Below, piece by piece: positions 13,913-40,342 of a DNA stretch of 64,000 bases (positions are counted from its first letter, which is position 1; each line of letters opens with the position of its first letter). The stretch comes from Actinomycetota bacterium (GTDB taxonomy: Bacteria; Actinomycetota; Actinomycetes; S36-B12), in the NCBI GenBank assembly GCA_947449035.1, contig CANFQC010000001.1, positions 65,659 through 129,658 on the forward strand. The letters run 5' to 3'. The translations under genes and the position numbers were made by a program. The notes under the pieces are model-generated. The model worked only from the letters and a program-made list of their open reading frames with translations. It was not told where the DNA came from and searched no databases.

Positions 13913-13934
13913 CACCCGAGGTACGGGGGGTGGG

Positions 13935-14974: not shown

Positions 14975-16144
14975 CTAGCTCTTCGGAGCCGACTTGAGAG
15001 TCAGCGGGAGCTTGACCACCTGGTCGCCGTCGCGGACGACAGTCAAGGTGATGGTGTCGCCAGGCGCATGTGAGCGGATAGTGACAACCAGTGCGGTGGA
15101 ATCGGCAACCTTCTTGCCGTCGATCTTGGTGATGACGTCACCGGACTGCATTCCTGCAGCTTCAGCGGCGCCGCCCGAAGTGACCTCGCCGACCTTGGCG
15201 CCGTCACCGGTGTAACCCGTGTCGAGCTGTACGCCGATAACCGGAGTGCTCGCAGAGCCGTTCTTAATCAGCTCATTCGACACACGCTTCACCGTGTCGA
15301 TGGGGATCGCGAAGCCGAGGCCGATGGAGCCGGCCTGCTGACCCGCAGCAGCGCCCATGCTCGCGATTGCCGAGTTCACGCCGATTACTTCGCCTGAAGC
15401 GTTGATCAGCGGGCCACCGGAGTTGCCGGGGTTGATCGCAGCGTCAGTCTGGATCGCGTTAATGAATGAGGTGTCGCCGCCACCCTCGCCGGCAGTGACC
15501 GGACGATCAAGTGCGCTGACGATGCCGGTCGTGACAGTGCCTTGCAGTCCGAGCGGTGAACCGATTGCAATGACGCTCTGGCCCACCTTCAGGTCATGCG
15601 AGACGCCCATCGGGACAGCCTGGAGACCGGTGCGGTCAACCTTGACGACCGCGATGTCGTAATCGGGGCTTGCACCGACGAGTGTGCCCGTTGCAGTCTT
15701 GCCATCGGCGAAGGTGACGCTGATGCTGCCCTCCTTCCCTGCTGGGCCGGCCACGTGATTGTTCGTCACGATGTAGCCATCGGGACTGATGACAAAGCCC
15801 GAACCGGTTCCTGAGCCATTGGCACCGGTCACATCGAGCTGTACGACTGCCGGCTGCACGGCGGCGGCGAGGTCGACGACTGAGCTGCCTGCGGGCACGG
15901 AGATGTTGCCACCTTCTGCCGTGGAAGCAGTGGCCACGGCTGAGGCCGAGTTGTTGTTGGCAACGGTGTAGCCGACGGCACCGCCAACGGCACCACCAAG
16001 CAGCGCGGTTACTGCTGCGCCACCGATGACGGCGGCACCGATACGGGACTTCTTCGCCGCGGGTGCGGAGTAGTGGGGAGCGGGCTGCGCGATTGGCGCC
16101 TGATCAGCCTGGGGCATGCCCGCGGGGGTCATGGGGGTGGTCAC
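14975..16144 (-). CDS. HtrA/DegP-family trypsin-like serine protease with C-terminal PDZ domain
   Basis: Membrane anchor, VTNNHV (His), DIAVVKV (Asp), GNSGGPL (Ser), PDZ segment GDVITKIDGKKV. GTG start with an AAGGAG SD. Confidence 0.9.
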   Translation of the reverse strand: MTTPMTPAGMPQADQAPIAQPAPHYSAPAAKKSRIGAAVIGGAAVTALLGGAVGGAVGYTVANNNSASAVATASTAEGGNISVPAGSSVVDLAAAVQPAVVQLDVTGANGSGTGSGFVISPDGYIVTNNHVAGPAGKEGSISVTFADGKTATGTLVGASPDYDIAVVKVDRTGLQAVPMGVSHDLKVGQSVIAIGSPLGLQGTVTTGIVSALDRPVTAGEGGGDTSFINAIQTDAAINPGNSGGPLINASGEVIGVNSAIASMGAAAGQQAGSIGLGFAIPIDTVKRVSNELIKNGSASTPVIGVQLDTGYTGDGAKVGEVTSGGAAEAAGMQSGDVITKIDGKKVADSTALVVTIRSHAPGDTITLTVVRDGDQVVKLPLTLKSAPKS

Positions 16145-16329
16145 GATGATCTCCTTCTGTGCCGGCCGGTGCCGACTACAACTATTCGAACCCAGATTCC
16201 CCTCTGCGTCTTCCTCTCAAACCCGAGTCGAGGCAGACCTAACCCTCTCCTTACATGGGCCTGACCCGATCCAGTCAGATAGCCGTCTGCGGCGGGAACT
16301 TCCCAGGGAGCGGCAGAGTCGAAAGGGGT

Positions 16330-16341
16330 GGTCAATTGACC
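16330..16341. repeat. 12-bp perfect palindrome GGTCAATTGACC upstream of the S8 peptidase gene
   Basis: Read directly; 45 nt upstream of the ATG at 16386. Contains a TTGACC (-35-like) hexamer on both strands. Confidence 0.3.
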
Positions 16342-16385
16342 GAGCAAAGGTGAGGCATCCTTATCCAGTGAGTACAGGGAGCGGC

Positions 16386-19166
16386 ATGAGAAATAGAGCG
16401 GCGAAGGGCATCTCCGCTGCCCTGGTCTCGTTGACTGTGGTCGCCGCATCTTTCTGGGCCACGTCCGCCGCGGCAGACCCGATCGCCGATCCCCCACCTG
16501 CTGCGAGCGCATCCCCCAGCGCGAGTCCTGGGTCGAGTGCACCTTCACTCGCATCCACAGATCCCTCCGCGGCTCCCAGCAGTTCACTCCCGAATGGCCT
16601 TGGTCGGTACATCGTCACTGTTGACCCGGGACAGCAGTCAGCGGTCGCGAATATCGTGACCGACGCCGGCGGCATAGTCACAGCGAGCTATGACAAAGCA
16701 ATCGAAGGTCTTGCAGTGCAAATGAGTGCGGAAGACGCTTCAGCTCTCGCCTCTACACGCGGCGTCGTCAGCGTGGAAGTCGATAAGCCAGTTTCAATCA
16801 ATGAGCCATCAGCGAATGTCGGTGGCGCGGTGGTGACCGACCCGGGCTGCACCACCAACAGCCTGCCTCGCGGTGACGACGTCGGAACCTCGGCAGTCAA
16901 TCTCGGCTTCTCTGTCAACTGGTTTGGCAGCAGCTACAGCCAGATCCTGATCAACAACAACGGCGGCCTCTCCTTCAACGACGGCAGGGGAAGCTTCACC
17001 GATTACACAAACGTAGATCTGCGCACGACCAATCGCCCGCTTGTACTCCCCCTGTTCACCGACATCGATACGCGAAACAACGCAACGACTGTCGTGAAGT
17101 ACGGACCATTGCAGAATTCCTTCGATGGCGTCACCGGCGGTTACTGCATCAACTGGGTCAACGTCGGACACTACGACCAGAGTGCGCCGTATTACTCAGC
17201 CCAGTTGATCATTCTGCCGAGGACCTCTGCAGACTCCGGTCGTGCAACCGGCGATGTCGACTTGATCTTCAACTACGACGGCATCAATGCTGCGACCACG
17301 AATGTCCCGTTGGAAATCGGCTACGCCGATCCCGCGAACCGAGCTAACAGTTACCGCTTCTCCTCCAGCGGGGTGACTCCGAATCCGTATGTTGACGGAG
17401 TTGGAACTGCTCTTAAGACAAACAAGAACGTTCCGTTGGGCAAGGGCGCTCTCGACGTTAATGGGCGCTACTGGTTCCAGATCACGCCAGGCTCTGCGCC
17501 TACGGCTACCCCGACACCCACGGGCTCCGCATCTCCAACCGCCACTGCAACGCCAGAGCCTTGCTCATCGAGCACCCCGACCGGCACTCAAGGCTGCGCG
17601 CCTTGGGGCCTTGACCGCATTGATCAGCGCTCACTCCCGCTGAACACCACCTTCACTCCCGCAGGCACCGGAGCCGGCGTTCGTGCCTATGTCATCGATA
17701 CGGGCATCTACGCCAGCAATGACTTCAGCACTCGGCTGACCACCGGATACGACTTCGTTGACAACGACACCGACGCGACCGACTGTCACGGTCACGGCAC
17801 GCACGTTGCAGGCACCGTCGCCGGCACCGCGTACGGCGTGGCCAAGCAGGCCACGCTCGTGCCGGTACGCGTGCTCAGTTGCACGGGTAGTGGCTACACC
17901 AGCGATGTCATTGCGGGCATCAACTGGGCGATTAGCGATCATCAAGCTCATCCTGGCCCCGCAGTGGCCAACATGAGCCTCGGCGGTTCGGCAGACAAGT
18001 CAACTGACGACGCCGTTGCTGCCGCAGTGGCTGCAGGTATCACCATGGTGGTGGCCGCAGGCAACAGCAATGCGGATGCCTGCACCGCCAGCCCGGCACG
18101 CGAGACGACGGCAATAACTGTCGGCGCTATCGATAGCTCCGATGCACGTGCTTCGTTCTCTAATTACGGCACGTGCGTTGACATCTTCGCGCCAGGCGTG
18201 AGCATCACATCTGACGGCATCTCCAGCCCGACGTCGACTGCAACGATGAGCGGCACCTCCATGGCGTCACCTCATACCGCCGGCACCGTTGCCGTCTACC
18301 TCGGGCTGCACCCCACCGACACACCAGCCCAAGTTGTTACCTCACTCAAGGCAAGCGCATCCACAGGCGTCACGAACGCAGGAGCCGGAAGTCCGGATCA
18401 CCTTCTCTACGCCCGTTCCTTTGTGGCGAACTCCGCTTCGCCATCAGCACCTGCCTCTGCCTCTGCCTCGTCGTCAACGGGTGGTGGCAGTTCCTCGGGA
18501 GGAGGAAGCGGGAGTGGCGGTGGAGGTAGCTCCGGCGGTGGCGGTGGCGGTGGCGGTGGAACCACGGCCGACATCCTCGAAGTGCGTCCGGCTTTCGGGC
18601 CGACCACCGGCGGCAACACCATCAACATTCTCGGCTACGGCTTCTGGGGCACGAGTGGTGTGACGGTCGGCGGTAAGTCTGCGACCTATAAAGTCATCGA
18701 CGCTTCAAACATCCAGGTCGTGGCTCCCCCAGGAGTTGCCGGCTGGCAGGACGTCATCGTGACTCTCGCCGTAGGACGTGCCGTGGCTCTCGGCGGCTAC
18801 CGCTACGAGGCGCCGGTGACACCCCCGCCGGGCCAGGTCGTCATTCAGTCAACGACAAGTTCCTCAACCGCACCAGCAGCGGTGAACTCGACTGTCCCGG
18901 TCACTCGGGCAACTGTCAGCTCCGTACGCCTGGCTGCCAACGGCACGATGTCGATCTCGATGAGGGTGGCTGGCGCGGCTAAGGGGCAAACAGTCTCCCT
19001 GTACAAGTCGGGCACGAAGGTGCGCAGTGGCAAGGTGACGAAGAACGGAACCGTGGCCTTCACCGGCGTGGCTCCGACTACCGGCACCTACACGGTCGTG
19101 CTCAGCAAGGCTGGCAAGACCATGTCACGGTCACAGCCGATGCTCATCACCGCTCCTCGCCGCTGA
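16386..19166 (+). CDS. secreted multidomain subtilisin (S8, proteinase-K-like): signal peptide, I9 propeptide, NIDO-like domain, S8 domain, G/S linker, IPT/TIG and Ig-like domains
   Basis: ATG at 16386 with an AGGGAG SD. I9 (YIVTVD..GVVSVEVDKPV). NIDO-like LGFSVNWFGSSYSQILINNNGGLSF..LPLFTDIDTR..INWVNVGHY. S8 triad YVIDTGI / HGTHVAGT / GTSMASPH. IPT-like ILEVRPAFGPTTGGNTINILG. Confidence 0.85.
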   Translation: MRNRAAKGISAALVSLTVVAASFWATSAAADPIADPPPAASASPSASPGSSAPSLASTDPSAAPSSSLPNGLGRYIVTVDPGQQSAVANIVTDAGGIVTASYDKAIEGLAVQMSAEDASALASTRGVVSVEVDKPVSINEPSANVGGAVVTDPGCTTNSLPRGDDVGTSAVNLGFSVNWFGSSYSQILINNNGGLSFNDGRGSFTDYTNVDLRTTNRPLVLPLFTDIDTRNNATTVVKYGPLQNSFDGVTGGYCINWVNVGHYDQSAPYYSAQLIILPRTSADSGRATGDVDLIFNYDGINAATTNVPLEIGYADPANRANSYRFSSSGVTPNPYVDGVGTALKTNKNVPLGKGALDVNGRYWFQITPGSAPTATPTPTGSASPTATATPEPCSSSTPTGTQGCAPWGLDRIDQRSLPLNTTFTPAGTGAGVRAYVIDTGIYASNDFSTRLTTGYDFVDNDTDATDCHGHGTHVAGTVAGTAYGVAKQATLVPVRVLSCTGSGYTSDVIAGINWAISDHQAHPGPAVANMSLGGSADKSTDDAVAAAVAAGITMVVAAGNSNADACTASPARETTAITVGAIDSSDARASFSNYGTCVDIFAPGVSITSDGISSPTSTATMSGTSMASPHTAGTVAVYLGLHPTDTPAQVVTSLKASASTGVTNAGAGSPDHLLYARSFVANSASPSAPASASASSSTGGGSSSGGGSGSGGGGSSGGGGGGGGGTTADILEVRPAFGPTTGGNTINILGYGFWGTSGVTVGGKSATYKVIDASNIQVVAPPGVAGWQDVIVTLAVGRAVALGGYRYEAPVTPPPGQVVIQSTTSSSTAPAAVNSTVPVTRATVSSVRLAANGTMSISMRVAGAAKGQTVSLYKSGTKVRSGKVTKNGTVAFTGVAPTTGTYTVVLSKAGKTMSRSQPMLITAPRR

Positions 19167-20272: not shown

Positions 20273-20345
20273 GTCCCCATCGTCTAGTGGCCTAGGACAC
20301 CGCCCTTTCACGGCGGCAGCACGGGTTCGAATCCCGTTGGGGATA
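20273..20345 (+). tRNA. tRNA-Glu (anticodon TTC), no encoded CCA
   Basis: GTCCCCATCGTCTAGTGGCCTAGGACACCGCCCTTTCACGGCGGCAGCACGGGTTCGAATCCCGTTGGGGATA. Very close to E. coli tRNA-Glu; G1.U72 wobble. Confidence 0.9.
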
Positions 20346-20367
20346 CGCACGGCAGCACCATCAGTAA

Positions 20368-20444
20368 GGCCCCGTAGCGCAGTCGGTTAGCGCGCCGCCC
20401 TGTCACGGCGGAGGTCGCCGGTTCGAGCCCGGTCGGGGTCGCCA
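20368..20444 (+). tRNA. tRNA-Asp (anticodon GTC), CCA encoded
   Basis: Cloverleaf GGCCCCG..CCTGTCACGG..GGTTCGAGCCCGGTCGGGGTCGCCA. Confidence 0.95.
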
Positions 20445-20480
20445 TATCGAAGGTCAGCGAAAGCTGGCCTTCGATTGTTC

Positions 20481-20557
20481 GGCCAGGTAGCTCAGTTGGT
20501 ACGAGCGTCCGACTGAAAATCGGAAGGTCGGCGGTTCGACCCCGCCCCTGGCCACCA
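20481..20557 (+). tRNA. tRNA-Phe (anticodon GAA), CCA encoded
   Basis: GGCCAGGTAGCTCAGTTGGTACGAGCGTCCGACTGAAAATCGGAAGGTCGGCGGTTCGACCCCGCCCCTGGCCACCA. Confidence 0.95.
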
Positions 20558-21399: not shown

Positions 21400-21627
21400 G
21401 CGACGATGATAATCACTTGATTTGCGAAGCGAGACTTTTCAACTCACCGAACCCTGGCCCCTCGATGGGTCAAGTATTGGATCCCACATTCGCCTCCCGC
21501 ACAACATCCCCTGGAATGTCGTCGCAGTGTGAGCTTCGAACACCAACATTCCTTCTCCACCCAACTGTTGACCTCGCCCTGCCCATACGTGAGAGTGTGC
21601 GGATTGTCGGATATCGCAGGGAGTTCT

Positions 21628-22449
21628 ATGCGCATCGTGTGCCAGCAGCTTGCCCCGAGGGTGGGCGAAGACGCCGCAAACTTGACTGCCATTGAGCAAG
21701 CTATTGACGAGGCGTTGGCCTTGGGGGCAGACCTGATCGTGCTCCCTGAGTTGAGCACCAGCGGATACGTCTTCGAGGCCGAGGCCGAGGTGGCCGCGGC
21801 AGCACTCATCCGCGACTCGTCTGTCTTCACTCAGTGGCAGGAGCGCCTGAGCGGTACGGGCGCAGTACTCGCCGCTGGCTTCCCGCTCAAGGATGCGCAT
21901 GGCATCTTCAACGCAGCAGTGCTGCTGGATGAATCAGGCGTACTCGCTGTCTACAAGAAGGTGCATCTCTGGGACGAGGAGAAGCGCTGGTTCGTGCCGG
22001 GTAATGAGGCACCACCTGTGGTCGAGACTCGTCACGGCCGCGTGGGTGTTCTTGTCTGCTACGACCTCGAATTCCCCGAGATGGTTCGAGGCTTGCTGCT
22101 CAAAGGTGCTGAGGTCATCGCGGTCCCGACGAACTGGCCGCTGGGCACTAAGCCCGATCACGAACGTCCAGCCGAGGTTCATGATGCGATGTCGAGCGCG
22201 CGACTTAGTCGAGTGATTGTCGCCTGCTGCGATCGGTGCGGTTCTGAGCGAGGAGTTGCGTTCACCGGTGGCAGCGCCATCATCGGGGCCGACGGTTGGA
22301 TTAAGGCGGAGAGACCAGAGCGTGATGGTGGAGAGGTTGTAGCAGACATCGATATCGCCACTGCGCGAAACAAGACCGTCTCTGCGCGAAACCACACCCT
22401 CGACGACCGCCGACCCGATGTTTACGCTCGGATGAATCTGGGGAACTAG
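21628..22449 (+). CDS. carbon-nitrogen hydrolase (nitrilase superfamily)
   Basis: Catalytic triad contexts LPELSTSGY (Glu), YKKVHLW (Lys), VLVCYDLEFPE (Cys). ATG at 21628 chosen over the upstream track start. Confidence 0.85.
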   Translation: MRIVCQQLAPRVGEDAANLTAIEQAIDEALALGADLIVLPELSTSGYVFEAEAEVAAAALIRDSSVFTQWQERLSGTGAVLAAGFPLKDAHGIFNAAVLLDESGVLAVYKKVHLWDEEKRWFVPGNEAPPVVETRHGRVGVLVCYDLEFPEMVRGLLLKGAEVIAVPTNWPLGTKPDHERPAEVHDAMSSARLSRVIVACCDRCGSERGVAFTGGSAIIGADGWIKAERPERDGGEVVADIDIATARNKTVSARNHTLDDRRPDVYARMNLGN

Positions 22450-23867
22450 CCGTCAACGGAGTTCGATCGCGCTGAGGCAAGCGCACCGATTCTACGTTCG
22501 GCGCGGAAGAGCACAATCCAGCCGAGTAGCGCCACGACAAAGCCCAGAATTCCATCTATGCGAATTGCATTGGCAAGGGCAGCGAGCTGGCCATCACTGA
22601 CAGACGTCACTCCGGCCTCCAGCTGCACGCTGGTGAGGATCGCGGCGCCAAGAAGAGACATACCCAAGACGGTACCTATCGAACTTGCTGCCGTACGGAA
22701 TGCCGACACTTCACCTGTGCGATCAGAAGGCGCGCGGCCCATGACATCCATGTTGAGCACGGTCAATGCGCCCATGCCTGCGCAACTAAAGACGCTGGAG
22801 ATCGCGATGAGGAGCCATAACGGAGTCTCGGGCTGCATCACGATGAGAGGGAGCATGGTGAGGCCTGTGACGAGGATGAGGCCTCGCCCAGCACGCGCCT
22901 TCCCCCAGTGGTGTACTGCTCGCTTTGCGAGAACCTTCGCGCCAAGTATCGCTCCAAGCTGAGCGGGCACGACAACGATCGCAGCCTGGAGGGGTGTCAG
23001 GTCGTAGAAGTACTGAATGGCAATGCAGACGTACGTCAGGATCTGGATGAGCGAGATCAGCACGACACCGATCAAGAGCACTCGCAGCAGGGGGGCGCGA
23101 ATCGAATCGAAGTTGAAGCTCGCTTCGGCGGGCCTTCGCATCATGAAAATGCAGACGACTCCGGTGAGAAGGCTCACCAGGGCACCGATCAGGATCTTTG
23201 TTCCCTCGATCTCGACATTGTCGATCTCGGCGAGCGCAATCGAACCAGCGGTGAGGGAGACGCCGGCGAGGACCGGAGCCAACCAGCCATGATTTGCTCT
23301 CCGCGGCTTGTCCGCATCGAGCACCATCGCCGCGACGATTGCGATGACGAAGCCCGATACGGCCCACACGATGGGGATCCATCGCCAGTTCACCGCATCC
23401 AATACACCTGCGGTAGCAATGGGCAAGATCAGGAAACTGATCGGGAAGACCATTCCGTAGGTGGTGAAGGCCGATACCTGAGCCGCGCCTTCACTTGCTG
23501 TCTTTTGCAGCAGGCTCACTCCGACTACCTGGATGATGATCGCGCCAGCCCCGCAGAGTGCGAGTCCGACATTCACTCCAGTTGGACCCTGAGCCGAAGC
23601 GAGAATCAGTGCACCGAGGGCGAAGAGCAGCCCCGACCAGACCATCGTCCTTCGATCGCCGAGATTGTCACCGACCCGACCGGCTAGGAAGACTACGAGC
23701 AGCGCCGAGACGGCCGGAACTACGAGTGCGTCTTCCACGTACTGGTCAGATAGCCCGAGACTCTCTGCCATTGGAGAAACAAGGAAGGTGAGGCCGGCTC
23801 CCACCAGAAGAGTGAGTCCCACCATGACGCAGACGGCCAACACGACTCTGTGCTGCGCGGCGGACAT
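22446..23867 (-). CDS. MFS transporter (14-TM, DHA2-like)
   Basis: 473 aa, uniformly hydrophobic. GRVGDNLGDRR loop (MFS motif A-like). Confidence 0.8.
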   Translation of the reverse strand: MSAAQHRVVLAVCVMVGLTLLVGAGLTFLVSPMAESLGLSDQYVEDALVVPAVSALLVVFLAGRVGDNLGDRRTMVWSGLLFALGALILASAQGPTGVNVGLALCGAGAIIIQVVGVSLLQKTASEGAAQVSAFTTYGMVFPISFLILPIATAGVLDAVNWRWIPIVWAVSGFVIAIVAAMVLDADKPRRANHGWLAPVLAGVSLTAGSIALAEIDNVEIEGTKILIGALVSLLTGVVCIFMMRRPAEASFNFDSIRAPLLRVLLIGVVLISLIQILTYVCIAIQYFYDLTPLQAAIVVVPAQLGAILGAKVLAKRAVHHWGKARAGRGLILVTGLTMLPLIVMQPETPLWLLIAISSVFSCAGMGALTVLNMDVMGRAPSDRTGEVSAFRTAASSIGTVLGMSLLGAAILTSVQLEAGVTSVSDGQLAALANAIRIDGILGFVVALLGWIVLFRAERRIGALASARSNSVDG

Positions 23868-23958
23868 GACTCAGATCCTAAGTGGGACCTGAGAGGGAGA
23901 CAGGTGGCATTTCGAGACGGATCTTCATGCGAGCCGCTGAACGCGTAGCATTCCCACC

Positions 23959-24303
23959 ATGGCTCAGTACCTCATCTTCTTCAATCAGCAATGGGTCGGC
24001 GACCACTCCGAGGAGTGGTTCCAAGGCCGCGGTCCACTCGCTCGCGCAGTTGTTCAGCGCATGCAGGAGGCGGGGGTTGTCGTCTTCGCCGGTGGCCTTG
24101 TGGAGGAAGTCGAAGAGGCATTCAGTGCCGACACCACCAGCGGAGAACTCATCATGTCGCCCGGACGCTACTCAGAGAGCGATGAGTACCTCGGCGGAAT
24201 GACGATCATCGAAGTGGAAGACGATGCGGCGGCCGCCATGTGGGCGGGCGAGATTGCCGAGGCCTGCGGTTGGCCTCAGGAAGTTCGACGCTTCAAGCCG
24301 TAG
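23959..24303 (+). CDS. YciI-family protein
   Basis: 114 aa; MAQYLIFF start with the alpha/beta pattern of YCII/DGPF proteins. Confidence 0.6.
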   Translation: MAQYLIFFNQQWVGDHSEEWFQGRGPLARAVVQRMQEAGVVVFAGGLVEEVEEAFSADTTSGELIMSPGRYSESDEYLGGMTIIEVEDDAAAAMWAGEIAEACGWPQEVRRFKP

Positions 24304-24337
24304 ATGCTGCCTAGGCCGACACTGATTCCATCGAGAG

Positions 24338-25183
24338 TCACGAACGAGTAATCAACCCACGAGCCTCGAGATCCTTGAGGTACTTCTCCATGCCTCGATC
24401 GCCACGCCCTCGGAAGAGCGGCAAGGCCTTCGGGATCAGGCTTGGCACCAGCATCACCACACGCACAAGCCACGACTCGGAGGGCTTCGGGTAGTACTCG
24501 TACTTGGGCTTGTTGAGAAGCTTGCGAAAAGCCTTCACGACATCGGCCGGCGTCTGTGGCGGGTCCAGGAACTGAAGGGAATTTCCGCCGTCCAGCGCCT
24601 CCTGCCGAAGCATTGGAGTGTCGGTTGCTGACGGCAGAACGGATCCGACAGTAATTCCCTTGGGACCGAGGTCCATTCCGATCGCAAGCATCGCTCCGCG
24701 CAGACCAAACTTCGAAGCCGTGTAGATCGGCGTCTCGCCGAGGGGAAAGATTCCTCCCAGGGAAACTGTGGTGCAAATGCGCGGATCAGTGGACTTGCGG
24801 AGCAGCGGAATTGCCAGCCGGGAAAGGACCAGCGGTGCAAGCAGATTGACGCTCAACTCATGCTCGATACTCTCCACGCTTCGCTCATCAAAGCGATCAG
24901 CCGACGTCATCCCGGCGTTGTTCACGAGGACATCGAGGCGCCCGAACCTCTCATCAATGAAGGCCACCAGCCCTTCGACCTGAGAGCGGTCGGTCAGATT
25001 GATGCCGTAGCCAATGTGCCCAGTTCCCGACAGGGATGCAGCTACCGAATCTGCGCCCTCCCTGTTGAGATCGGCCACGATGACCACCGCGCCGTCAGCC
25101 GCGAGCGACTCCGCCAGCGCCGAGCCAATTCCACCGGCACCTCCAGTGACGAGAATGACCTTGTTCTGTGGGTCGTAGCTCAT
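24338..25183 (-). CDS. SDR-family oxidoreductase
   Basis: VTGGAGGIGSALA, NNAG, YTASKFG. ATG at 25183 forms an ATGA overlap with the stop of the permease-FMO ORF. Confidence 0.85.
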   Translation of the reverse strand: MSYDPQNKVILVTGGAGGIGSALAESLAADGAVVIVADLNREGADSVAASLSGTGHIGYGINLTDRSQVEGLVAFIDERFGRLDVLVNNAGMTSADRFDERSVESIEHELSVNLLAPLVLSRLAIPLLRKSTDPRICTTVSLGGIFPLGETPIYTASKFGLRGAMLAIGMDLGPKGITVGSVLPSATDTPMLRQEALDGGNSLQFLDPPQTPADVVKAFRKLLNKPKYEYYPKPSESWLVRVVMLVPSLIPKALPLFRGRGDRGMEKYLKDLEARGLITRS

Positions 25184-28002
25184 GAGTTCTCCTGGGGCTG
25201 GGCGGATGAGGTAGAGAGCGGACGCATCATCGAGCGATATGTCTCGGCATCGAGATCGGCCCACTCGAAGCGATCACGAAGAGATGCCAAGTAGTCGACG
25301 TAGGTGTCGACTTGCACGTAGGTGGCATGTCGGTCGGAGTCGACATACGTCATGCCACCACTGAGGTCAGGGAAGTCAGACGACTTCAATGATCGGAACT
25401 CATCATGGAATTGGCCAGTCTCACGGGCACGAATGTCGATCACGATCATCTGAGCCATCTCATCGAAACGCGTGTACGCAGCACCGGCGAATTCCGTGAA
25501 ACCAACCACGTACAGGCTGTCGTAATCACGTGAAAAGAGATTGAGATACAGCTTCGGCCGACCTCGGTGCCAGGTAATGAGTTTCTCGTCAAGGAAAGGC
25601 AGCAGATACTGATACCCCGTGGCCAGCAGTACCAAGTCAATCTCTTCGGAGCTCCCGTCCGCGAAGACCACAGATTTACCCTCAAGCCTGGCTACGTCGG
25701 GCTTCGCAATGAGGTCACCATGCTGGAGGTAGTGAATAACCTGTGTGTTCATGATCGGGTGGCTTTCCAGCAGGGCGTGATCTGGCGCGGGGAGTCCAAG
25801 GCGAGTGACGTCACCGACGTAGGCATCAATCATCGAGGTGGCATCCCCCGACAACGAGACCCCCTTCGGCGGCGGAATGACTCCGTAGAGAACTGCATCA
25901 GTCGGCAGCCCGAAGATGTGCTTGGGAACGAAGCGATAGCCGCGTCGAACTGAGAGGTAGGCCTGCGATGCGGACCTAGCGGCATCACAGGCGATATCGA
26001 CTCCCGAATTTCCCGCGCCGACAATGAGTACTCGCCGGTCAGCGAGTTCGGCCGGCTCCCGGTAACTCACCGAATGACGAATCTCTCCAGCGAATGACTC
26101 CGCGCCCGGAAGTTCGGGAATGCTCGGATGCCAGGTAACGCCTGGGCAACCGATGATCCCGTCGTAGTCGCGCACTTCGCCAGTGGACAAGGTGACCGAC
26201 CAACGGTCCTCCGGCAGCGGCACTGCGGCCGCCACACCTACTCCGAGAGTCACATGTTCATACAGTCCGAAATCACGCGCGAAGGCCCGGATGTAGTCGC
26301 GGATTTGATCCCATGACGGATAGTCCGGGTAGTGCGAGGGCATGGGGTAGCCGACAAAGCCGGAGGTGTACTTGGAGCTGATGAAGTGCGCACTTGTGTA
26401 CATCGGGGAGTCTGGATTGTCCATGTTCCAGATGCCACCCACGTCGTCCTGCTTCTCGAACCAATCGAAGGGGACGCCTTCAGCTATGAGCGCACGCGCC
26501 ATGATGAGGCCGGCAGGGCCAGCACCAACAAGGCAGTAGCGACGCGAGTACGCGACTGCGATGGCGTCGGAACGGCGTCGACGACTTCGTACCTGCGCTC
26601 GGGCGATCGCGGCGTATGTCGTGGGCTTTCGGCGACGAATCACTAAAGCCACCACCACACCCGCAATCGCAGCGACGAAAAGCGCCAAGGGGACCGAGTT
26701 CACCATCGCGCTCGAGGAACCAGTAAGGGTCGGGTAATTGATGAAGGCCAGAACGAAGGCTGCCGTGAGACCGATGAATCCGATCGCTGGCGCCACGGTC
26801 TCACGCCACCAATGACGGGATCGACGACCCGCGAAGAATGCAACGACGGAAAGCGAGGCACCGGCCTGAAGCGCGATGATTCCGAGGGTGCCGACTCCGA
26901 GGAGCGCAGGAACAAGGGTCGTGAACGGATCAGCTCCGATGAGCCCGAAGATGCTGATGACCACCAACGCCAGCACCGAAACAAGCACGCTTGCCACGTG
27001 CGGACTGAAGTGCTGGGGGTGATAGTGCCCAAGGCGCTCAGGCAGGACACGCTCGCGACCCAGAGCAAAGAGGTACCGACTGGTTGCGTTGTGAATCGCC
27101 AGGTAACCCGCAAGCACGCTGGTGCACAGCAGCACTGCTGAGATGTCGTACAAGACTTCTCCGCCGTACTGCTTGATGAGATCGAAGACGAATTCACCCT
27201 GAGCCTCGGTGGCCTGCGGAGCAATCGATGCGACTCCTGCGGCCCCGACGATGATCCAACTGGTCAGGATGTAGAAACCACCGATCGAGGCTACGGCGAT
27301 GTAGGTGGCTCGTGGGATCGAGCGCTCCGGATCCTTCGTCTCCTCCCCGTAAAGTGCTGCGGACTCGAAGCCGATGAAGCTAGACATCGCGAACATCAAG
27401 GCGATTCCCAGCGAGCCGCTGAAGGCGTAGGTGGGCGTGAAGGAATCGAGTGGGAAAGCTTCTGCACCCTTGTCGCCGACGATGATGACATCGAAAACGA
27501 TGAGCACGACGAATTCGAGCACCATGAGTGTGCCGAGAACTTTCGCGGATAGGTCAACCGATCGGTAGCCAAGAACCGCAACGATTCCGATAGCTACAAG
27601 CGCCGGGATCCACCAGGCAATAGTGATTCCGAGTCCGTCGAGTACAAGTGCCGTGTAGTAGCCAAAGGCGCCTGCAAGCCCGAATGAGAGACCTCCGTAG
27701 GCGAGTACCGCGACGTATGCCGCTGCCACTCCTGTTGGCTTCCCGAGAGCGCGAGCGATATACGTATAGAAGGCGCCGGTGTTGACGACTCGACGACTCA
27801 TCGCGGCATAGCCCACCGAGAAGCACAGCAGAATCAGAGTTGCGGCCACGAAGGCGAATGGAATTCCCGCCCCATTTCCGAAGATGACCGCAAGCGGGAC
27901 GTTTCCGACCATCGCAGCCATCGGAGCTGCAGCCGCAATGACGAGGAAGACCACCCGACGGGTGCTCAGGGCGGTGCGCGTTCCACCGGTTTCCTGTGCC
28001 AT
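25180..28002 (-). CDS. fusion protein: N-terminal APC-family amino-acid/amine permease (aa 1-457) plus C-terminal class-B flavin-containing monooxygenase (aa 489-940)
   Basis: One uninterrupted 941-codon frame from ATG 28002 (GGAG 6 nt upstream). APC motifs NTGAFYTYIARALG, FIGFESAA. Arg-rich linker. FMO part has CLVGAGPAGL (FAD), FAGEIRHSVSY (FMO motif), VLIVGAGNSGVD (NADPH), LATGY. Confidence 0.85.
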   Translation of the reverse strand: MAQETGGTRTALSTRRVVFLVIAAAAPMAAMVGNVPLAVIFGNGAGIPFAFVAATLILLCFSVGYAAMSRRVVNTGAFYTYIARALGKPTGVAAAYVAVLAYGGLSFGLAGAFGYYTALVLDGLGITIAWWIPALVAIGIVAVLGYRSVDLSAKVLGTLMVLEFVVLIVFDVIIVGDKGAEAFPLDSFTPTYAFSGSLGIALMFAMSSFIGFESAALYGEETKDPERSIPRATYIAVASIGGFYILTSWIIVGAAGVASIAPQATEAQGEFVFDLIKQYGGEVLYDISAVLLCTSVLAGYLAIHNATSRYLFALGRERVLPERLGHYHPQHFSPHVASVLVSVLALVVISIFGLIGADPFTTLVPALLGVGTLGIIALQAGASLSVVAFFAGRRSRHWWRETVAPAIGFIGLTAAFVLAFINYPTLTGSSSAMVNSVPLALFVAAIAGVVVALVIRRRKPTTYAAIARAQVRSRRRRSDAIAVAYSRRYCLVGAGPAGLIMARALIAEGVPFDWFEKQDDVGGIWNMDNPDSPMYTSAHFISSKYTSGFVGYPMPSHYPDYPSWDQIRDYIRAFARDFGLYEHVTLGVGVAAAVPLPEDRWSVTLSTGEVRDYDGIIGCPGVTWHPSIPELPGAESFAGEIRHSVSYREPAELADRRVLIVGAGNSGVDIACDAARSASQAYLSVRRGYRFVPKHIFGLPTDAVLYGVIPPPKGVSLSGDATSMIDAYVGDVTRLGLPAPDHALLESHPIMNTQVIHYLQHGDLIAKPDVARLEGKSVVFADGSSEEIDLVLLATGYQYLLPFLDEKLITWHRGRPKLYLNLFSRDYDSLYVVGFTEFAGAAYTRFDEMAQMIVIDIRARETGQFHDEFRSLKSSDFPDLSGGMTYVDSDRHATYVQVDTYVDYLASLRDRFEWADLDAETYRSMMRPLSTSSAQPQENS

Positions 28003-28066
28003 GAATTCTCCTGCTCTCACTATGGGAGACGCCATGCGGCGTGACCCGTGCCTTGGATCCTGCTGC

Positions 28067-28114
28067 ACGCTGGGGATCTGGTCCAGCGTCATGGGAAAAA
28101 GGTTGCAATTTCCC
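28067..28114. repeat. two adjacent inverted repeats in the divergent promoter region of the permease-FMO / SRPBCC operons
   Basis: ACGCTGG-N9-CCAGCGT (28067-28089) and GGGAAA-N10-TTTCCC (28093-28114), read directly. Confidence 0.3.
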
Positions 28115-28143
28115 TCTGTCCTCATTCGGGTTACCGTGGGCGC

Positions 28144-28632
28144 ATGCCCGCAGAGAAGCCTCGCGCTGAAATCGTCCCCACGAACCACGAGTGGCGGCGA
28201 GCCGGGCGCATCGTGATCAATGCGCCCATCGCCGTGATCTTCGATCTGCTTGCCGATCCCCGCCGACACGCGGATTTTGACGGCTCAGGAACTGTCCAGC
28301 GGCAGATCAAGGGGCCGCTGCGCCTGTCGAAGGGCGCCACGTTTGGCATGGCAATGCGGGTCAAGCTTCCGTACACGATCACGAACACGGTCGAGGAGTT
28401 CGAGGAGCCCTCACGTATCGCCTGGCGACACCTGGGTCGTCATCGCTGGCGTTACGAGCTCGAGGCCGTCGACACAGCCACGACTGTCGTGACCGAGACC
28501 TTTGATGGAAGCACGGCTCTCTTCCCCCCAGCCCTGAAACTCATCAACGCGTATGACAACAACCAGAAGGCCATCCTGAAGTCACTCGTGCAGCTCAAGA
28601 TCATCGCCGAGGAGCTGGCGGCATCCATCTGA
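28144..28632 (+). CDS. SRPBCC-family (polyketide cyclase/START-like) ligand-binding protein
   Basis: IVINAPIAVIFDLLADPRRHADFDGSG..ITNTVEEFEEPSRIAWRH is typical of SRPBCC proteins. ATG at 28144. Confidence 0.65.
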   Translation: MPAEKPRAEIVPTNHEWRRAGRIVINAPIAVIFDLLADPRRHADFDGSGTVQRQIKGPLRLSKGATFGMAMRVKLPYTITNTVEEFEEPSRIAWRHLGRHRWRYELEAVDTATTVVTETFDGSTALFPPALKLINAYDNNQKAILKSLVQLKIIAEELAASI

Positions 28633-28779
28633 TTCGGTCCATCACAGTTCATCTTGAATTGGCCCGACTGTCATGCGCGCATCAGTCATTCGTCACATCG
28701 GCACCTCACCATTTTCTTACTTCCCCAGGAGTCCGTCGCCATTGACGTGACTGCCGACCGCAACGGATGGGGAGTAATC

Positions 28780-28923
28780 ATGATGTCCGAGGAACTTGTC
28801 TGCCCGGTGTGTCATACCGACGACTTCGAGGTAACCCGCAACGCCACTCATGGTTTCGTAGTGCTGTGCAATGAGTGCGGGTTCGCGCGCGGCGCGACTC
28901 TGCAGCACCTGCTCGCCGGCTGA
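28780..28923 (+). CDS. 47-aa zinc-ribbon protein
   Basis: ATG at 28780 with a GGAG SD. CPVC-X19-CNEC four-Cys knuckle pair. Confidence 0.5.
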   Translation: MMSEELVCPVCHTDDFEVTRNATHGFVVLCNECGFARGATLQHLLAG

Positions 28924-29002
28924 CGCTTCCCCTGTCAGCCTGACTGACGCCACGCCTGCAGCCCGGTCGAGCAATCGACCGGTCGCATGCGAGGCTTAAG
29001 CG

Positions 29003-30367
29003 GTGCATCGACGGCAGTTTCTCTCCCTTTCCGCGGCGGCGACCGCCTCGCTTGCTGTTGTCGGTACGTCCACCTCGCAGGCCAGGGCCATGTCGATCCC
29101 GCGCCCCACGGGTTTCATGGCGACCCGCTGGGGCTCAAACCCCTGGGCCCGTGGCTCGTATTCCGCTCTCAGTACTCGGTGCAATCCAAATGCTCGCGAG
29201 ACTCTGGGTGAGGCTCTCGTCGGCGGTCGCGTAGTGCTAGCCGGCGAATACACGAGCATCGACTTTCCTTCCACGACCACTGGCGCGTACCAGTCCGGAG
29301 TCCGTGCGGCACGGCAGTTGATCTCCGAAGTCGAGCCGAGTCGGGTCATCGTGATCGGCGCCGGCATTGCTGGCGCTGCGGCAGCCAAGACTTTGGCGAA
29401 CACCGGCATCGCAGTTCAGGTGCTCGAAGCCAGCGATCGCATCGGCGGTCGCATCAGGTCGTCCACCGAATGGGGTGCTCCCGTTGAGCTCGGGGCGGCG
29501 TGGGTGCACTCCACCAAGGGCAACCCCGTCACCGGCCTGGCAGCCTCCGCCGGGCTCACACTCGTGCCCACCGACTACGGGGACGAAGTCATTCGCGACA
29601 CGGTCACCGGGCGAGAGAGCAGTCAGGCTGAATCCGTTGATGGACGACTCTCGGATCTCACCGATGAACTTGCCGACGACGAAAACTCGCCGACTCTCTC
29701 CGTATCCTCGTGGCTCGCCCGACATGGGTGGAGCCCCAATCGATTCGGACGCTGGGCTCAGGCAGTCGACATCACTCAGGAATATGGGCTGGACCCCTCC
29801 ACGCTGAGTGTCGCTGCACTGCAGGAGGGCGGGGAAGGCGCCGGCGGCGATGCATTCGTCAAGGGTGGTTACGCCGCAATTCCCCGCTACCTCCTCGACG
29901 GTCTTGACGTTCGACTCAATGAACCGGTGTCACGCGTAGAGCCCAACACCTCATCGGTACGAGTACGAACATCACGCGAGTCGCTGACCGCAGATGCAGT
30001 CGTGATCGCCGTTCCACTCCCCTTGCTGCAGGCCGGAATGCCGGGAGTCACGGGAATGACGAAGGGTGTTGCGCGCGCGGTGCGAGGCTTGACGACCGGC
30101 AACCTCGAGAAGGTGATCCTGAAATACGACGAGCAGTGGTGGGGCGATTCGCAGGTGCTCGGCATCGTGGGCGGCGGTGTGCCCGGTGCACCCGATGGCT
30201 CACCGGCCGCCCTGCGCTGGACAGAGTTCTATTCGCTTACGCCACTCGTCGGCTTCCCCGCACTCGTTGGATTCTCCGGCGGACTTGCTGCTCGCACTCG
30301 ACCCGCCACAGATGCAAGTTGCGCTTCGGAGGCGCAAGCCCGTCTCGCTGCTGCATTCCGGCGTTAG
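29003..30367 (+). CDS. Tat-exported flavin amine oxidase (polyamine/monoamine-oxidase family) with circularly permuted sequence order
   Basis: Twin-arginine signal MHRRQFLSLSAAA..SQARA. Aa 31-110 carry the normally C-terminal motif TRWGSNPWARGSYS..VVLAGEYTS..TGAYQSGVRAA. Aa 114 onward carry the normally N-terminal VIVIGAGIAGAAAAKTL..VLEASDRIGGR. Confidence 0.8.
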   Translation: MHRRQFLSLSAAATASLAVVGTSTSQARAMSIPRPTGFMATRWGSNPWARGSYSALSTRCNPNARETLGEALVGGRVVLAGEYTSIDFPSTTTGAYQSGVRAARQLISEVEPSRVIVIGAGIAGAAAAKTLANTGIAVQVLEASDRIGGRIRSSTEWGAPVELGAAWVHSTKGNPVTGLAASAGLTLVPTDYGDEVIRDTVTGRESSQAESVDGRLSDLTDELADDENSPTLSVSSWLARHGWSPNRFGRWAQAVDITQEYGLDPSTLSVAALQEGGEGAGGDAFVKGGYAAIPRYLLDGLDVRLNEPVSRVEPNTSSVRVRTSRESLTADAVVIAVPLPLLQAGMPGVTGMTKGVARAVRGLTTGNLEKVILKYDEQWWGDSQVLGIVGGGVPGAPDGSPAALRWTEFYSLTPLVGFPALVGFSGGLAARTRPATDASCASEAQARLAAAFRR

Positions 30368-30379
30368 GCGTTCCACGAC

Positions 30380-31303
30380 ATGCCACGTCCACTCAGCGCG
30401 ATCCTTGGCCTCATCCTTGTGAGCACAGGACTTCTAGGCATCGCGAACCACGCCGCTGCGGCTTCGGCACTCGATTTGTCAGCTGTTGAACTCAACGTGC
30501 AGCGGGTAAATGCAGCAGGAACGACAATCGCCTGGGCCGAACTCGGCACGGGCTCACCGCTCCTATTGCTCAATGGCACCGCGTCCCCGATGAGCGAATG
30601 GGATCCCGCATTCCTCGCCGGCCTCGCAAATGCGAATCGGGTGATCGTGTTCGACTATCCCGGTCTCGGTGACTCGGGGGCCGCTCCCGGCTCATGGACT
30701 TTCGAACACGCAGCCGACTGGATAGCTGACTTCGCGGCGCGAGTCACCCCAGGCGAGCGTGTCAATGTGCTCGGTTGGTCAATGGGTGGGTTCATCGCAC
30801 AACAACTGGCTATTCGCCACCCTGCACTCATTCGCAATCTGGTGCTCGCGGCGACGAACCCCGGCGGTACCAAGACTGCACTCGGTCCTGCTTGGGTTCA
30901 GGAGATCGACAGCTCGTCATCTTCGGACGCCGACTACTTGCGCACGAATTACCCGCCGTCCGGACGAGCTGCAGGAAAGAGATTCCTGGACCGCCTTTCT
31001 GATGCCTATGACAGCGGCGCTTATCCAGTGACTGAGACCCCCGACCGAACCCTGAAGGCGATGGTTGCGGCAGAGGATCCTTGGCTGAGAAGTAATGACA
31101 ATCTTCGCCAGCTCGGAGGCATCGGCGCACCGACTCTTGTCCTTGATGGCGCGAACGACCTGATCACTCCGAAATCCAACAGCGCGGTGATCGCATCGCG
31201 GATACCAAAAGCGAGACTGCAAATCTTCCCCGGAAGCGGACATTCGTTCCTCTTTCAGAGACCTGAGATCGTGACGGGTGTCGTGAACCGTTTTCTCCGT
31301 TGA
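30380..31303 (+). CDS. secreted alpha/beta-hydrolase
   Basis: Signal peptide, nucleophile elbow GWSMGG, C-terminal GSGHSF. Confidence 0.75.
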   Translation: MPRPLSAILGLILVSTGLLGIANHAAAASALDLSAVELNVQRVNAAGTTIAWAELGTGSPLLLLNGTASPMSEWDPAFLAGLANANRVIVFDYPGLGDSGAAPGSWTFEHAADWIADFAARVTPGERVNVLGWSMGGFIAQQLAIRHPALIRNLVLAATNPGGTKTALGPAWVQEIDSSSSSDADYLRTNYPPSGRAAGKRFLDRLSDAYDSGAYPVTETPDRTLKAMVAAEDPWLRSNDNLRQLGGIGAPTLVLDGANDLITPKSNSAVIASRIPKARLQIFPGSGHSFLFQRPEIVTGVVNRFLR

Positions 31304-40341: not shown

Positions 40342-40342
40342 G

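Follow-up and report, generated by a model that had tools for sequence, protein, structure and literature searches.

What would a membrane transporter do with an oxygenase built into the same polypeptide? The question is raised by a gene at 25180-28002 on the minus strand of the window, by which the whole stretch of 64,000 nucleotides analysed is meant (Actinomycetota bacterium, contig CANFQC010000001.1, positions 65,659 to 129,658 of the forward strand). Its product joins a permease of the APC superfamily to a flavin-containing monooxygenase (FMO), and it is followed by a gene for a short-chain dehydrogenase/reductase (SDR). Within its family, which is conserved but uncharacterised, the gene is nothing out of the ordinary. 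The reading favoured here, with a probability of about 0.5, is a transporter-tethered two-enzyme oxidation module, in which a compound would be imported and then oxidised at the membrane by the SDR and the FMO, most likely with chemistry of Baeyer-Villiger (BV) type. The features on which the argument draws are the following (aa, amino acids; TM, transmembrane helix).

28008..28011, minus strand: GGAG ribosome-binding site, read from the sequence, with a 5-nt spacer to the ATG
25180..28002, minus strand: permease-FMO fusion gene (uninterrupted translation, both Pfam domains, identical product on 16 contigs)
26632..28002, minus strand: APC-superfamily permease domain, aa 1-457, 12 TM (Pfam, hydropathy, AlphaFold2 model)
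26539..26631, minus strand: conserved Arg-rich linker, aa 458-488, RRRKPTTYAAIARAQVRSRRRRSD... (conservation, AlphaFold2 model)
25183..26538, minus strand: FMO-like class B flavin monooxygenase domain, aa 489-940 (PF00743, PDB search, Foldseek)
26509..26526, minus strand: FAD-binding GAGPAG, aa 493-498 (translation; G493, G495 and P496 invariant)
26380..26385, minus strand: putative flavin-side dyad Phe540-Ile541, aligned with AncFMO5 I61-N62 (alignment)
26059..26094, minus strand: FMO-identifying motif FAGEIRHSVSYR, FxGxxxHxxx[YF][KR], aa 637-648 (translation and family conservation)
26002..26019, minus strand: NADPH-binding GAGNSG, aa 662-667 (translation; G662, G664, N665, S666 and G667 invariant)
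25759..25761, minus strand: His748, aligned with AncFMO5 His282 and AncFMO1 Glu281 (alignment)
25492..25494, minus strand: Glu837, aligned with DiatB Arg360, a charge reversal (alignment; Glu in 36/36 fusions)
24338..25183, minus strand: classical SDR, 281 aa, translationally coupled (adh_short profile, ATGA overlap, motifs)

The fusion protein and its two halves

The translation of 25180-28002 gives 940 aa and a TGA stop, with zero internal stops. The ATG lies at 28002-28000 and the GGAG at 28011-28008, and at the other end the TGA shares the letters ATGA with the ATG of the SDR gene. A mechanical search for open reading frames extends the gene to a GTG at 28269 (1029 aa). This longer start was ruled out by the homologues, which are 910-963 aa long and align from residue 1-9 or so, and by independent gene calls of the same protein, which give 940 aa; ATG 28002 is therefore taken as the true start. 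Upstream of it the frame stays open for 89 codons (28003-28269, minus strand), overlapping a divergent SRPBCC gene, and a caller that prefers the longest frame would mis-annotate a product of 1029 aa. A scan of 22300-28800 for promoters and terminators gave no site above shuffle expectation.

Assemblies in NCBI, ENA and Logan, made with different assemblers, contain the exact 940-aa protein on 16 contigs, which derive from at least five samples, and in all recorded copies it is coded by one gene followed by the overlapping SDR gene. The possibility that two neighbouring genes were joined artificially, through an indel in sequencing or a chimeric assembly, a caveat already raised in an earlier note on this DNA and one for which no supporting evidence was found, can practically be dismissed, as the identical product recurs on these contigs, full-length fusions exist in isolate genomes of Streptomyces, Rhizobium, Methylobacterium, Amycolatopsis and Actinocorallia, and the linker between the halves is conserved. 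The earlier note had described a single unbroken frame from ATG 28002 to TGA 25180 behind a GGAG, a covalent fusion, a permease at aa 1-457, an Arg-rich linker at aa 458-488, both termini and the FMO in the cytoplasm, and a stop overlapping the SDR start; the present analysis bears out each of these points. All peptides that it quoted are in the translation, NTGAFYTYIARALG and FIGFESAALYGEE in the permease half, RRRKPTTYAAIARAQVRSRRRRSD in the linker, and GAGPAG, FAGEIRHSVSY, VLIVGAGNSGVD and LATGY in the FMO half.

The permease half is recognized by two Pfam profiles, AA_permease_2 (PF13520, aa 12-433, 95.3 bits against a cutoff of 27) and AA_permease (PF00324, 76 bits against 24.6), both above their gathering thresholds and together covering aa 12-455. 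In the hydropathy profile, twelve hydrophobic segments lie within aa 17-456; the N-terminus is rich in Arg, and RRRK comes after TM12. The TM6 pattern F209-x-G211-F-E213...Y218-G-E220 (FxGFE...YGEE), typical of APC transporters, is invariant in the fusions, and so are the loop motifs and the TM1 motifs; TM1 itself reads AAAAPMAAMVGN and not the usual G(S/T)G segment. Every NCBIfam equivalog model stayed far below its cutoff on this half, with TIGR00909 as the best (96 vs 557 bits), followed by BcaP (59 vs 690), ethanolamine permease (41 vs 382) and GABA permease (31 vs 678), so that no substrate can be transferred from a curated subfamily. The sequence search of the PDB gave weak matches to y+LAT2, xCT and CAT (E 1e-7 to 1e-5).

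The twelve segments and the RRRK after TM12, read by the positive-inside rule and with the known APC topology, place the FMO in the cytoplasm, where NADPH is available. The linker is conserved across 36 fusions, with P460, Y463, A467, R472 and Y485 invariant. In an AlphaFold2 model computed with 36 family members (mean predicted local distance difference test, pLDDT, 85; predicted TM-score, pTM, 0.78), twelve long helices (pLDDT mostly 85-95) are followed by a short helix at 460-465, a linker with pLDDT 64-71, and the FMO from a beta-strand at 489. For two domains of equal size, the modelled pTM of 0.78 suggests a defined mutual orientation.

The FMO half matches Pfam FMO-like (PF00743) over aa 487-848 with 170 bits against a cutoff of 22. 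Its best scores in the PDB sequence search were with DiatB (8Z12, 214 bits), AncFMO5 (164), AncFMO1 (152), AncFMO2 (148), LbmA-Ox (147) and AncFMO3-6 (142), and Foldseek gave TM-scores of 0.84 to 8Z12 and 0.68-0.71 to the ancestral FMOs. Judged from these matches, it appears to belong to the mammalian-type (clade I-like) FMO lineage and to depend on FAD and NADPH. The FMO-identifying motif follows the published definition FxGxxxHxxx[YF][KR] (PMC10028610), an ATGY-type motif LATGY lies at aa 793-797, and the key residues of the FAD, NADPH, FMO and ATGY motifs are invariant in the 36 fusions. Both Rossmann motifs are intact. Where the earlier note saw all hallmarks of a class B FMO, these four motifs stand, while the flavin-side Asn is replaced by Ile541. 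Both halves are under purifying selection, and with the APC TM6 and loop motifs and the FAD, NADPH, FMO and ATGY motifs all invariant, both look functional.

Several better-known classes were tried and rejected. A type I Baeyer-Villiger monooxygenase (BVMO) would carry the fingerprint FxGxxxHxxxW[P/D]; here Tyr647 (Phe/Tyr in the family) and then Arg are found, and CHMO and PAMO scored only 51-63 bits. Type II FMOs were also distant, with 57 bits for SMFMO, 69 for PSFMO, 77 for CFMO and 39 for the 618-aa 8acs, against 164-214 for clade I FMOs and DiatB, and the Pfam scan found no SnoaL-like N-terminal extension, which is known from the long forms of this type (SMFMO/CFMO/PSFMO; FMO-E/F/G, JsFMO; PMC10028610). 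Trimethylamine monooxygenase Tmm reached 90 bits against a cutoff of 675, ArsO 118 against 425, and the Lys/Orn N-monooxygenase profile PF13434 only 24 bits in a partial match to aa 621-684.

Active-site positions were taken from alignments only, to DiatB, AncFMO5 and AncFMO1, and counted over the 36 fusions and 49 aligned sequences of the surrounding clade. The canonical flavin-side Asn (N62 in AncFMO5, N57 in DiatB, N78 in mFMO) is replaced by Ile541, with HFISSK standing against INTSK, SNSCK and LNTAK. Ile is found there in 36/36 fusions and in 43/49 clade sequences (motif H[F/L]ISSK; HFISSKY at aa 539-545 of the window's protein). The partner residue of the dyad, at AncFMO5 position 61, is Phe540, and Leu in many clade members; it is hydrophobic, which fits BV chemistry, but not the Leu/Ile of BV-competent FMOs. 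The second His belonging to the published triad was not located. In the FMO-family phylogeny of 2023, in which the role of the dyad is described, the flavin-side position is 'predominantly asparagine', the Asn stabilises the C4a-hydroperoxyflavin, and an mFMO mutant of this residue was without activity (PMC10682829); a recent family-wide survey gives only Thr, His and Val as rare alternatives. By these alignments the FMO half would fall in a distinct, uncharacterised bacterial clade with an unusual flavin environment.

Two further positions were compared. His748 is His in 36/36 fusions and in 36/49 aligned clade sequences. AncFMO5 loses all BV activity on H282E, whereas AncFMO2 has Glu-281 at this place, and its exchange to His left sulfoxidation unchanged and gave no BV activity (PMC10028610). 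Glu837 takes the place of DiatB Arg360, which is the residue mutated by the depositors of that structure. In clade I FMOs an insertion in the NADPH domain binds membranes and forms membrane-facing substrate tunnels (PMC10682829). The fusion has a homologous insertion at aa ~690-760, which could face the permease exit and would make a direct hand-over plausible.

Distribution of the family and its SDR partner

Relatives were searched in a 5.8-billion-protein collection, and the 120 best matches taken were all full-length, with both Pfam domains and 58-94% identity. Automatic annotation calls them 'amino acid permease', 'amino acid transporter' or 'CzcO/amino acid transporter'. A locus survey with one genome per species gave 252 genomes with a confirmed relative, of which the best 80 loci were analysed; both halves are present in 70 of them, and the other 10 are incomplete, mostly cut by a contig end. 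The full-length fusion is therefore known from at least 120 protein clusters and at least 70 species-level genomes. Hosts are mostly Actinomycetota, including many metagenome-assembled genomes (MAGs) of freshwater Nanopelagicales/acI type, and further Streptomyces, Amycolatopsis, Actinocorallia, Nocardioidaceae, Pseudonocardia and Acidimicrobiales. Alpha- and Betaproteobacteria account for 12/80 loci, at 50-53% identity (Rhizobium wuzhouense, R. aquaticum, Methylobacterium hispanicum, Roseiarcus, Rhodobacterales, Burkholderiales and Ottowia). Two single MAGs, labelled Candidatus Melainabacteria (L006) and Acidobacteria (L028), have fusions 61-69% identical to actinobacterial ones, closer to these than the proteobacterial copies are, which suggests recent horizontal transfer or misbinned contigs.

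When 1.84 billion cluster representatives (50% identity) were searched exhaustively, only two full-length fusions came up (P0121 and P0122). The rest were stand-alone permeases (~480-500 aa, up to 57% identical) and stand-alone or differently fused FMOs (up to 61% identical). In a rough neighbor-joining tree of the FMO halves, calculated without support values, all fusions form one group with the stand-alone FMO P0125 nested within it. This topology fits a single fusion event, from which the family probably arose, with occasional secondary splits. Adjacent separate genes for a permease and an FMO were looked for beside the closest stand-alone relatives; no FMO was found near the permease P0127, and no permease in the 162 nt of sequence available upstream of the FMO P0125.

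The earlier note knew of no characterised permease-FMO fusion. No description of an APC-FMO fusion was found in 7.7 million PMC papers and bioRxiv, and a dedicated phylogeny of the FMO family does not mention transporter fusions. The architecture is not rare, however, being common in databases under the name 'amino acid permease'.

Only two neighbours recur beside the fusion when the flanks are clustered de novo and surveyed with Pfam, the downstream SDR gene and, in a minority of 12 loci, a divergent gene for a local regulator of TetR type. The window's SDR matches adh_short with 151 bits, reaches no NCBIfam equivalog cutoff, and has the full classical catalytic set, TGGAGGIG (TGxxxGxG), NNAG and S...Y-TAS-K (YTASK). 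In the established classification of SDRs, Asp after beta2 indicates preference for NAD(H), as is commonly seen in dehydrogenases that operate oxidatively; Asp38 after beta2 suggests such a preference here and fits oxidation.

Adjacency was counted in the 73 loci with enough downstream sequence, an SDR gene being accepted within ~300 nt of the fusion stop. It lies directly downstream in 51 of them, 28 times co-directional and 23 times convergent. The convergent SDRs belong to the same family as the window's SDR (~60% identity), while the co-directional ones, in Streptomyces, rhizobia and other lineages, represent at least four other subfamilies, which makes at least five subfamilies across Actinomycetota and Proteobacteria. 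SDRs are estimated at a few per cent of genes, so adjacency of this frequency across phyla is far above chance.

The genetic linkage is with the FMO and not with the permease. Immediately after P0125 (61% identical), which has no permease in its available upstream sequence, an SDR start overlaps the FMO stop; in P0175 and P0204, both from the same clade, an FMO and an SDR are naturally fused into one protein, and the SDR domain of P0204 groups with the SDR family of the window (44% identity). The three-activity unit that the earlier note proposed from the ATGA overlap is strongly supported by these fusions, by the overlapping SDR of P0125 and by the adjacency in 51/73 loci. In P0169, P0221 and P0260 the fusion partner of the clade's FMO is a domain of another kind (epimerase/extended SDR, alpha/beta-hydrolase or PF10118 metal hydrolase), and P0202 has its FMO at the C-terminus of a 4928-aa megasynthase. 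The relatives fused to SDR, epimerase or hydrolase resemble natural 'cascade fusion' enzymes and are apparently uncharacterised.

A further arrangement was observed in acI-type freshwater MAGs (L014-L017, L033, L058, L072 and L076). There the fusion gene stands directly after rph (RNase PH) and rdgB (Ham1-like) and converges on the SDR gene; in some of these MAGs the two genes share up to ~24 nt at their 3' ends. This rph-rdgB-fusion/SDR arrangement is very compact and is kept across many lake samples.

What the module may do

The scheme that follows is inferred as regards the direction of transport, the transfer of substrate from one domain to the other, the kind of reaction and the compound on which it acts. 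The product would be a single inner-membrane protein, a 12-TM APC secondary transporter carrying an FMO in the cytoplasm on a short basic linker. The permease would import a small organic compound, presumably amine-bearing, since to our knowledge all known APC substrates carry amino groups. The substrate would be captured on entry and converted at the membrane in two oxidative steps by the coupled NAD-type SDR and the tethered FMO. The SDR would oxidise a hydroxyl to a carbonyl, the FMO would insert oxygen into this carbonyl in a reaction of BV type, and the product could be hydrolysed by an esterase that is not conserved beside the gene.

Sequence comparison leans to BV chemistry over simple N- or S-oxygenation for four reasons. 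The partners of the FMO clade, SDR and hydrolases, make up the classic set for conversion of an alcohol to a ketone, then an ester, and its hydrolysis. His748 matches the determinant of FMO5, while the N/S-oxygenating FMO1 and FMO2 have Glu there. FMO5 is also the best-scoring enzyme of known function. Finally, an NAD-type SDR beside an NADPH-consuming oxygenase is the layout that engineers use for cofactor-balanced cascades.

A number of observations weigh against this scheme. LbmA-Ox, a close relative of known function, is N-oxygenating and forms an oxime, and for DiatB, the closest structure, no literature account of its function was found. The identifying motif is of FMO type (Y/F) and not of BVMO type (W). 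The BV residues of FMO5 type are necessary but not sufficient (PMC10028610; PMC10682829), and because the Asn that stabilises the hydroperoxide is Ile and the mFMO Asn mutant is inactive, the catalytic cycle may be unusual. No conserved esterase was found near the fusion among the loci surveyed. An adjacent SDR is missing in 22/73 loci, the 23 convergent SDRs are not co-transcribed with the fusion, and these 23 loci, from closely related freshwater MAGs, are not independent observations. The single-origin tree of FMO halves is the one without support values.

The alternative that survives best is direct oxygenation of a heteroatom. Here the fused FMO would N- or S-oxygenate or N-hydroxylate the imported amine, amino acid or thioether, with the SDR acting on the product or in an unrelated step. 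The amino groups of known APC substrates suit this chemistry, as do the FMO-type motif FxGxxxHxxxY[R] and the place of LbmA-Ox, an N-oxygenase on a glycine-derived amine, among the closest structures; Glu837, which does not vary in the fusions and corresponds to DiatB Arg360, could be a binding site for an ammonium group. It is nevertheless only a tentative possibility, because the Tmm, ArsO and Lys/Orn models scored as low as given above, the Glu of the heteroatom-oxygenating AncFMO1 and AncFMO2 is His in the fusion, and SDR and hydrolase domains are untypical partners for the formation of N- or S-oxides. The earlier note had expected N/S-oxygenation or N-hydroxylation of an amine; this is not established by the curated models, all far below their cutoffs, and is weakened by Ile541, the FMO5-type His748 and the SDR/hydrolase partners, which lean to BV chemistry on a carbonyl.

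The import-and-oxidation scheme also has a stronger form, which is doubtful at present. It would be true vectorial catalysis, group translocation in the form of a secondary transporter: substrate leaving the inward-open APC domain would go straight into the membrane-facing tunnel of the FMO and be oxygenated together with the SDR, chemical trapping would drive uptake beyond what the ion gradient provides, the FMO would be of a hitherto unrecognised clade working without the Asn, and the whole would be a significant route for processing dissolved organic matter in abundant freshwater Actinobacteria.

The permease could instead be an exchanger, an APC antiporter bringing the substrate in and the FMO/SDR product out, or exporting a compound made by the two enzymes. 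Many APC members are such precursor/product antiporters and work with a cytoplasmic enzyme (AdiC, GadC, ArcD, CadB); tethering would raise the local concentration of product at the exchanger, and nothing in the sequence data of the permease fixes the direction of transport. On balance this is unlikely, as no biosynthetic gene cluster surrounds the gene in the 80 loci, its retention in streamlined freshwater genomes fits nutrient scavenging better, and TetR-type local regulators, present in 12 loci, are typical of catabolic or detoxification units.

A role of the permease mainly as a membrane anchor, or as lipid-phase access for an FMO acting on hydrophobic, membrane-partitioned compounds in the manner of mammalian FMOs, appears improbable. 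In its favour, the FMO half resembles clade I FMOs most, and in these the insertion in the NADPH domain attaches to membranes, with tunnels leading to the bilayer. Yet the permease half has 12 TM and keeps its APC motifs in TM1, TM6 and the loops without variation, which is far more than an anchor would need; the close stand-alone FMOs P0125 and P0130 have no TM segment, and stand-alone permeases 57% identical exist without an FMO.

Very improbable is a regulatory FMO, sensing NADPH, redox state or O2 and gating the transporter, or one catalytically impaired by the change from Asn to Ile: the Asn whose mutation abolished mFMO activity is indeed absent, and nucleotide-binding domains do regulate other transporters, but the Ile is clade-wide, occurring also in the 4928-aa megasynthase member and in the SDR/hydrolase fusions, where catalysis is expected, the cofactor and FMO motifs, His748 and Glu837 are all invariant, and the conserved SDR partner argues for metabolism.

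Surroundings and comparison with known systems

The other neighbours of the fusion gene in the window were rejected as partners. The MFS (major facilitator superfamily) transporter, the CN-hydrolase (nitrilase-like), the bestrophin-like protein, the SRPBCC protein, the TAT-signal (twin-arginine translocation) amine oxidase and the alpha/beta-hydrolase stand beside the fusion in 0/80 related loci and only in the window's species. The small reading frames near the gene contain no confident domains, and no local TetR regulator was found among them.

Divergent from the fusion, at 28048-31303 (plus strand), is a trio of genes for an SRPBCC/polyketide-cyclase-like protein, a flavin amine oxidase (454 aa, with a weak TAT-signal match) and an alpha/beta-hydrolase (307 aa). 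It is tempting as an amine-catabolic partner, and it adjoins the fusion in the window's species only, in 0/80 related loci. The nitrilase/CN-hydrolase-like gene at 21529-22449 (plus strand) and the MFS transporter gene at 22446-23867 (minus strand) are convergent and overlap by 4 nt at their 3' ends; the best NCBIfam matches of the former, archaeal-type nitrilase and N-carbamoylputrescine amidase, are both below cutoff. A cluster of tRNA-Glu(ttc), tRNA-Asp(gtc) and tRNA-Phe(gaa) lies at 20273-20557 (plus strand), ~4.6 kb past the 3' end of the fusion. The stretch from 20 to 28 kb has a G+C content of 0.58-0.60, against 0.61-0.63, and contains species-specific genes; it could be a variable region beside the tRNA genes. 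Three large proteins in the flanks are apparently unrelated to the fusion, a subtilase with a TIG domain (16116-19166, plus strand, 1016 aa), a heparinase II/III-like protein (11888-14236, minus strand, 782 aa) and a sulfatase-domain protein (38326-40500, minus strand, 724 aa).

Both domains of the fusion come from well-known superfamilies, the concept of a transporter-enzyme fusion is already known, and the APC-FMO combination is abundant in databases. Nothing here overturns current understanding, though the substrate would be of specialist interest. What is added is an SDR partnership that looks obligate, a probable single origin with fission, and an active site predicted to combine the exchange of Asn to Ile with an FMO5-like His; with these, the family becomes a well-defined experimental target and not a curiosity of one genome. 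It is rare for a secondary transporter to be fused covalently to the enzyme that consumes its cargo, and such a protein shows at once which activities form a set. In this family a testable three-part module is outlined by the fusion itself, the conserved SDR, and those relatives in which the FMO is joined to an SDR or a hydrolase. Neither half is annotated beyond 'amino acid permease'. Identification of the substrate would give a function to hundreds of genes in freshwater Nanopelagicales-type Actinobacteria, Streptomyces and rhizobia, and possibly to a pathway by which organic nitrogen or amino alcohols are turned over in lakes and soils. The large Asn-to-Ile clade with its FMO5-like His also bears on what makes an FMO a BV catalyst.

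On the transporter side, the nearest known systems are the stand-alone APC transporters (TC 2.A.3; TIGR00909 'ABT'-type, BcaP, y+LAT/xCT/CAT). They share the Pfam domains, the 12 TM, the TM6 pattern FxGxE...EE and the motifs after TM8, and stand-alone homologues are up to 57% identical to the permease half (P0127), but none has an enzyme domain.

On the enzyme side, the FMO half comes nearest, among solved structures, to DiatB (named 'flavin-dependent monooxygenase' in PDB 8Z12-8Z17, released in 2025), which shares both Rossmann motifs and the FMO motif. DiatB differs as a stand-alone soluble enzyme of 432 aa with no transporter, and has Asn57, Arg360 and Ala where the fusion has Ile541, Glu837 and His748. 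FMO5/AncFMO5 (PDB 6SEK), the best-scoring FMO of known function, can be aligned with residues 8-429 of the FMO half, a span that takes in the C-terminal 'YVDS.RH', and shares the His (282) needed for BV activity and the homologous NADPH-domain insertion. Like the fusion it is held at the membrane, FMO5 being membrane-bound (PMC10682829) but without a transporter domain. It keeps Ile61 and Asn62, against Phe540 and Ile541 in the fusion, and is a eukaryotic enzyme of xenobiotic and endogenous ketone metabolism. LbmA-Ox (PDB 8ODW), the FMO domain of the lobatamide polyketide synthase, is of the same broad lineage and likewise covalently fused, comparable to the clade member P0202. Its partner, however, is an assembly line, its substrate is by the PDB title glycine-derived and carrier-bound, and it aligns with no more than the initial ~320 residues of that half.

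Conceptual precedents are found in import systems. IrtAB of Mycobacterium tuberculosis is an ABC transporter to which an FAD-binding siderophore-interaction domain is fused, and the phosphotransferase system (PTS) works by group translocation. In both, cargo is modified on the cytoplasmic side during import, in IrtAB by a fused flavoenzyme domain. IrtAB differs in being ATP-driven, in having a flavin reductase and not an O2-dependent monooxygenase, and in lacking any sequence relationship.

Cascades of an SDR or alcohol dehydrogenase (ADH), a BVMO and an esterase occur in nature, as in ChnA-ChnB-ChnC of cyclohexanol degradation and in the mymA operon, and ADH-BVMO fusion enzymes have been engineered. 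These cascades use type I BVMOs with FxGxxxHxxxW and have no transporter attached; the fusion family is without a conserved adjacent esterase. The enzyme set is the same as that around the FMO clade of the fusion, with the SDR adjacent or fused and hydrolases fused, and pairs of this kind are self-sufficient in redox terms. A review (PMC9354712) deals with fusion enzymes for oxidoreductase cascades that need no external cofactor recycling. Nature has apparently built the SDR-FMO fusions for cofactor recycling that engineers make, and in addition a version with its own uptake system.

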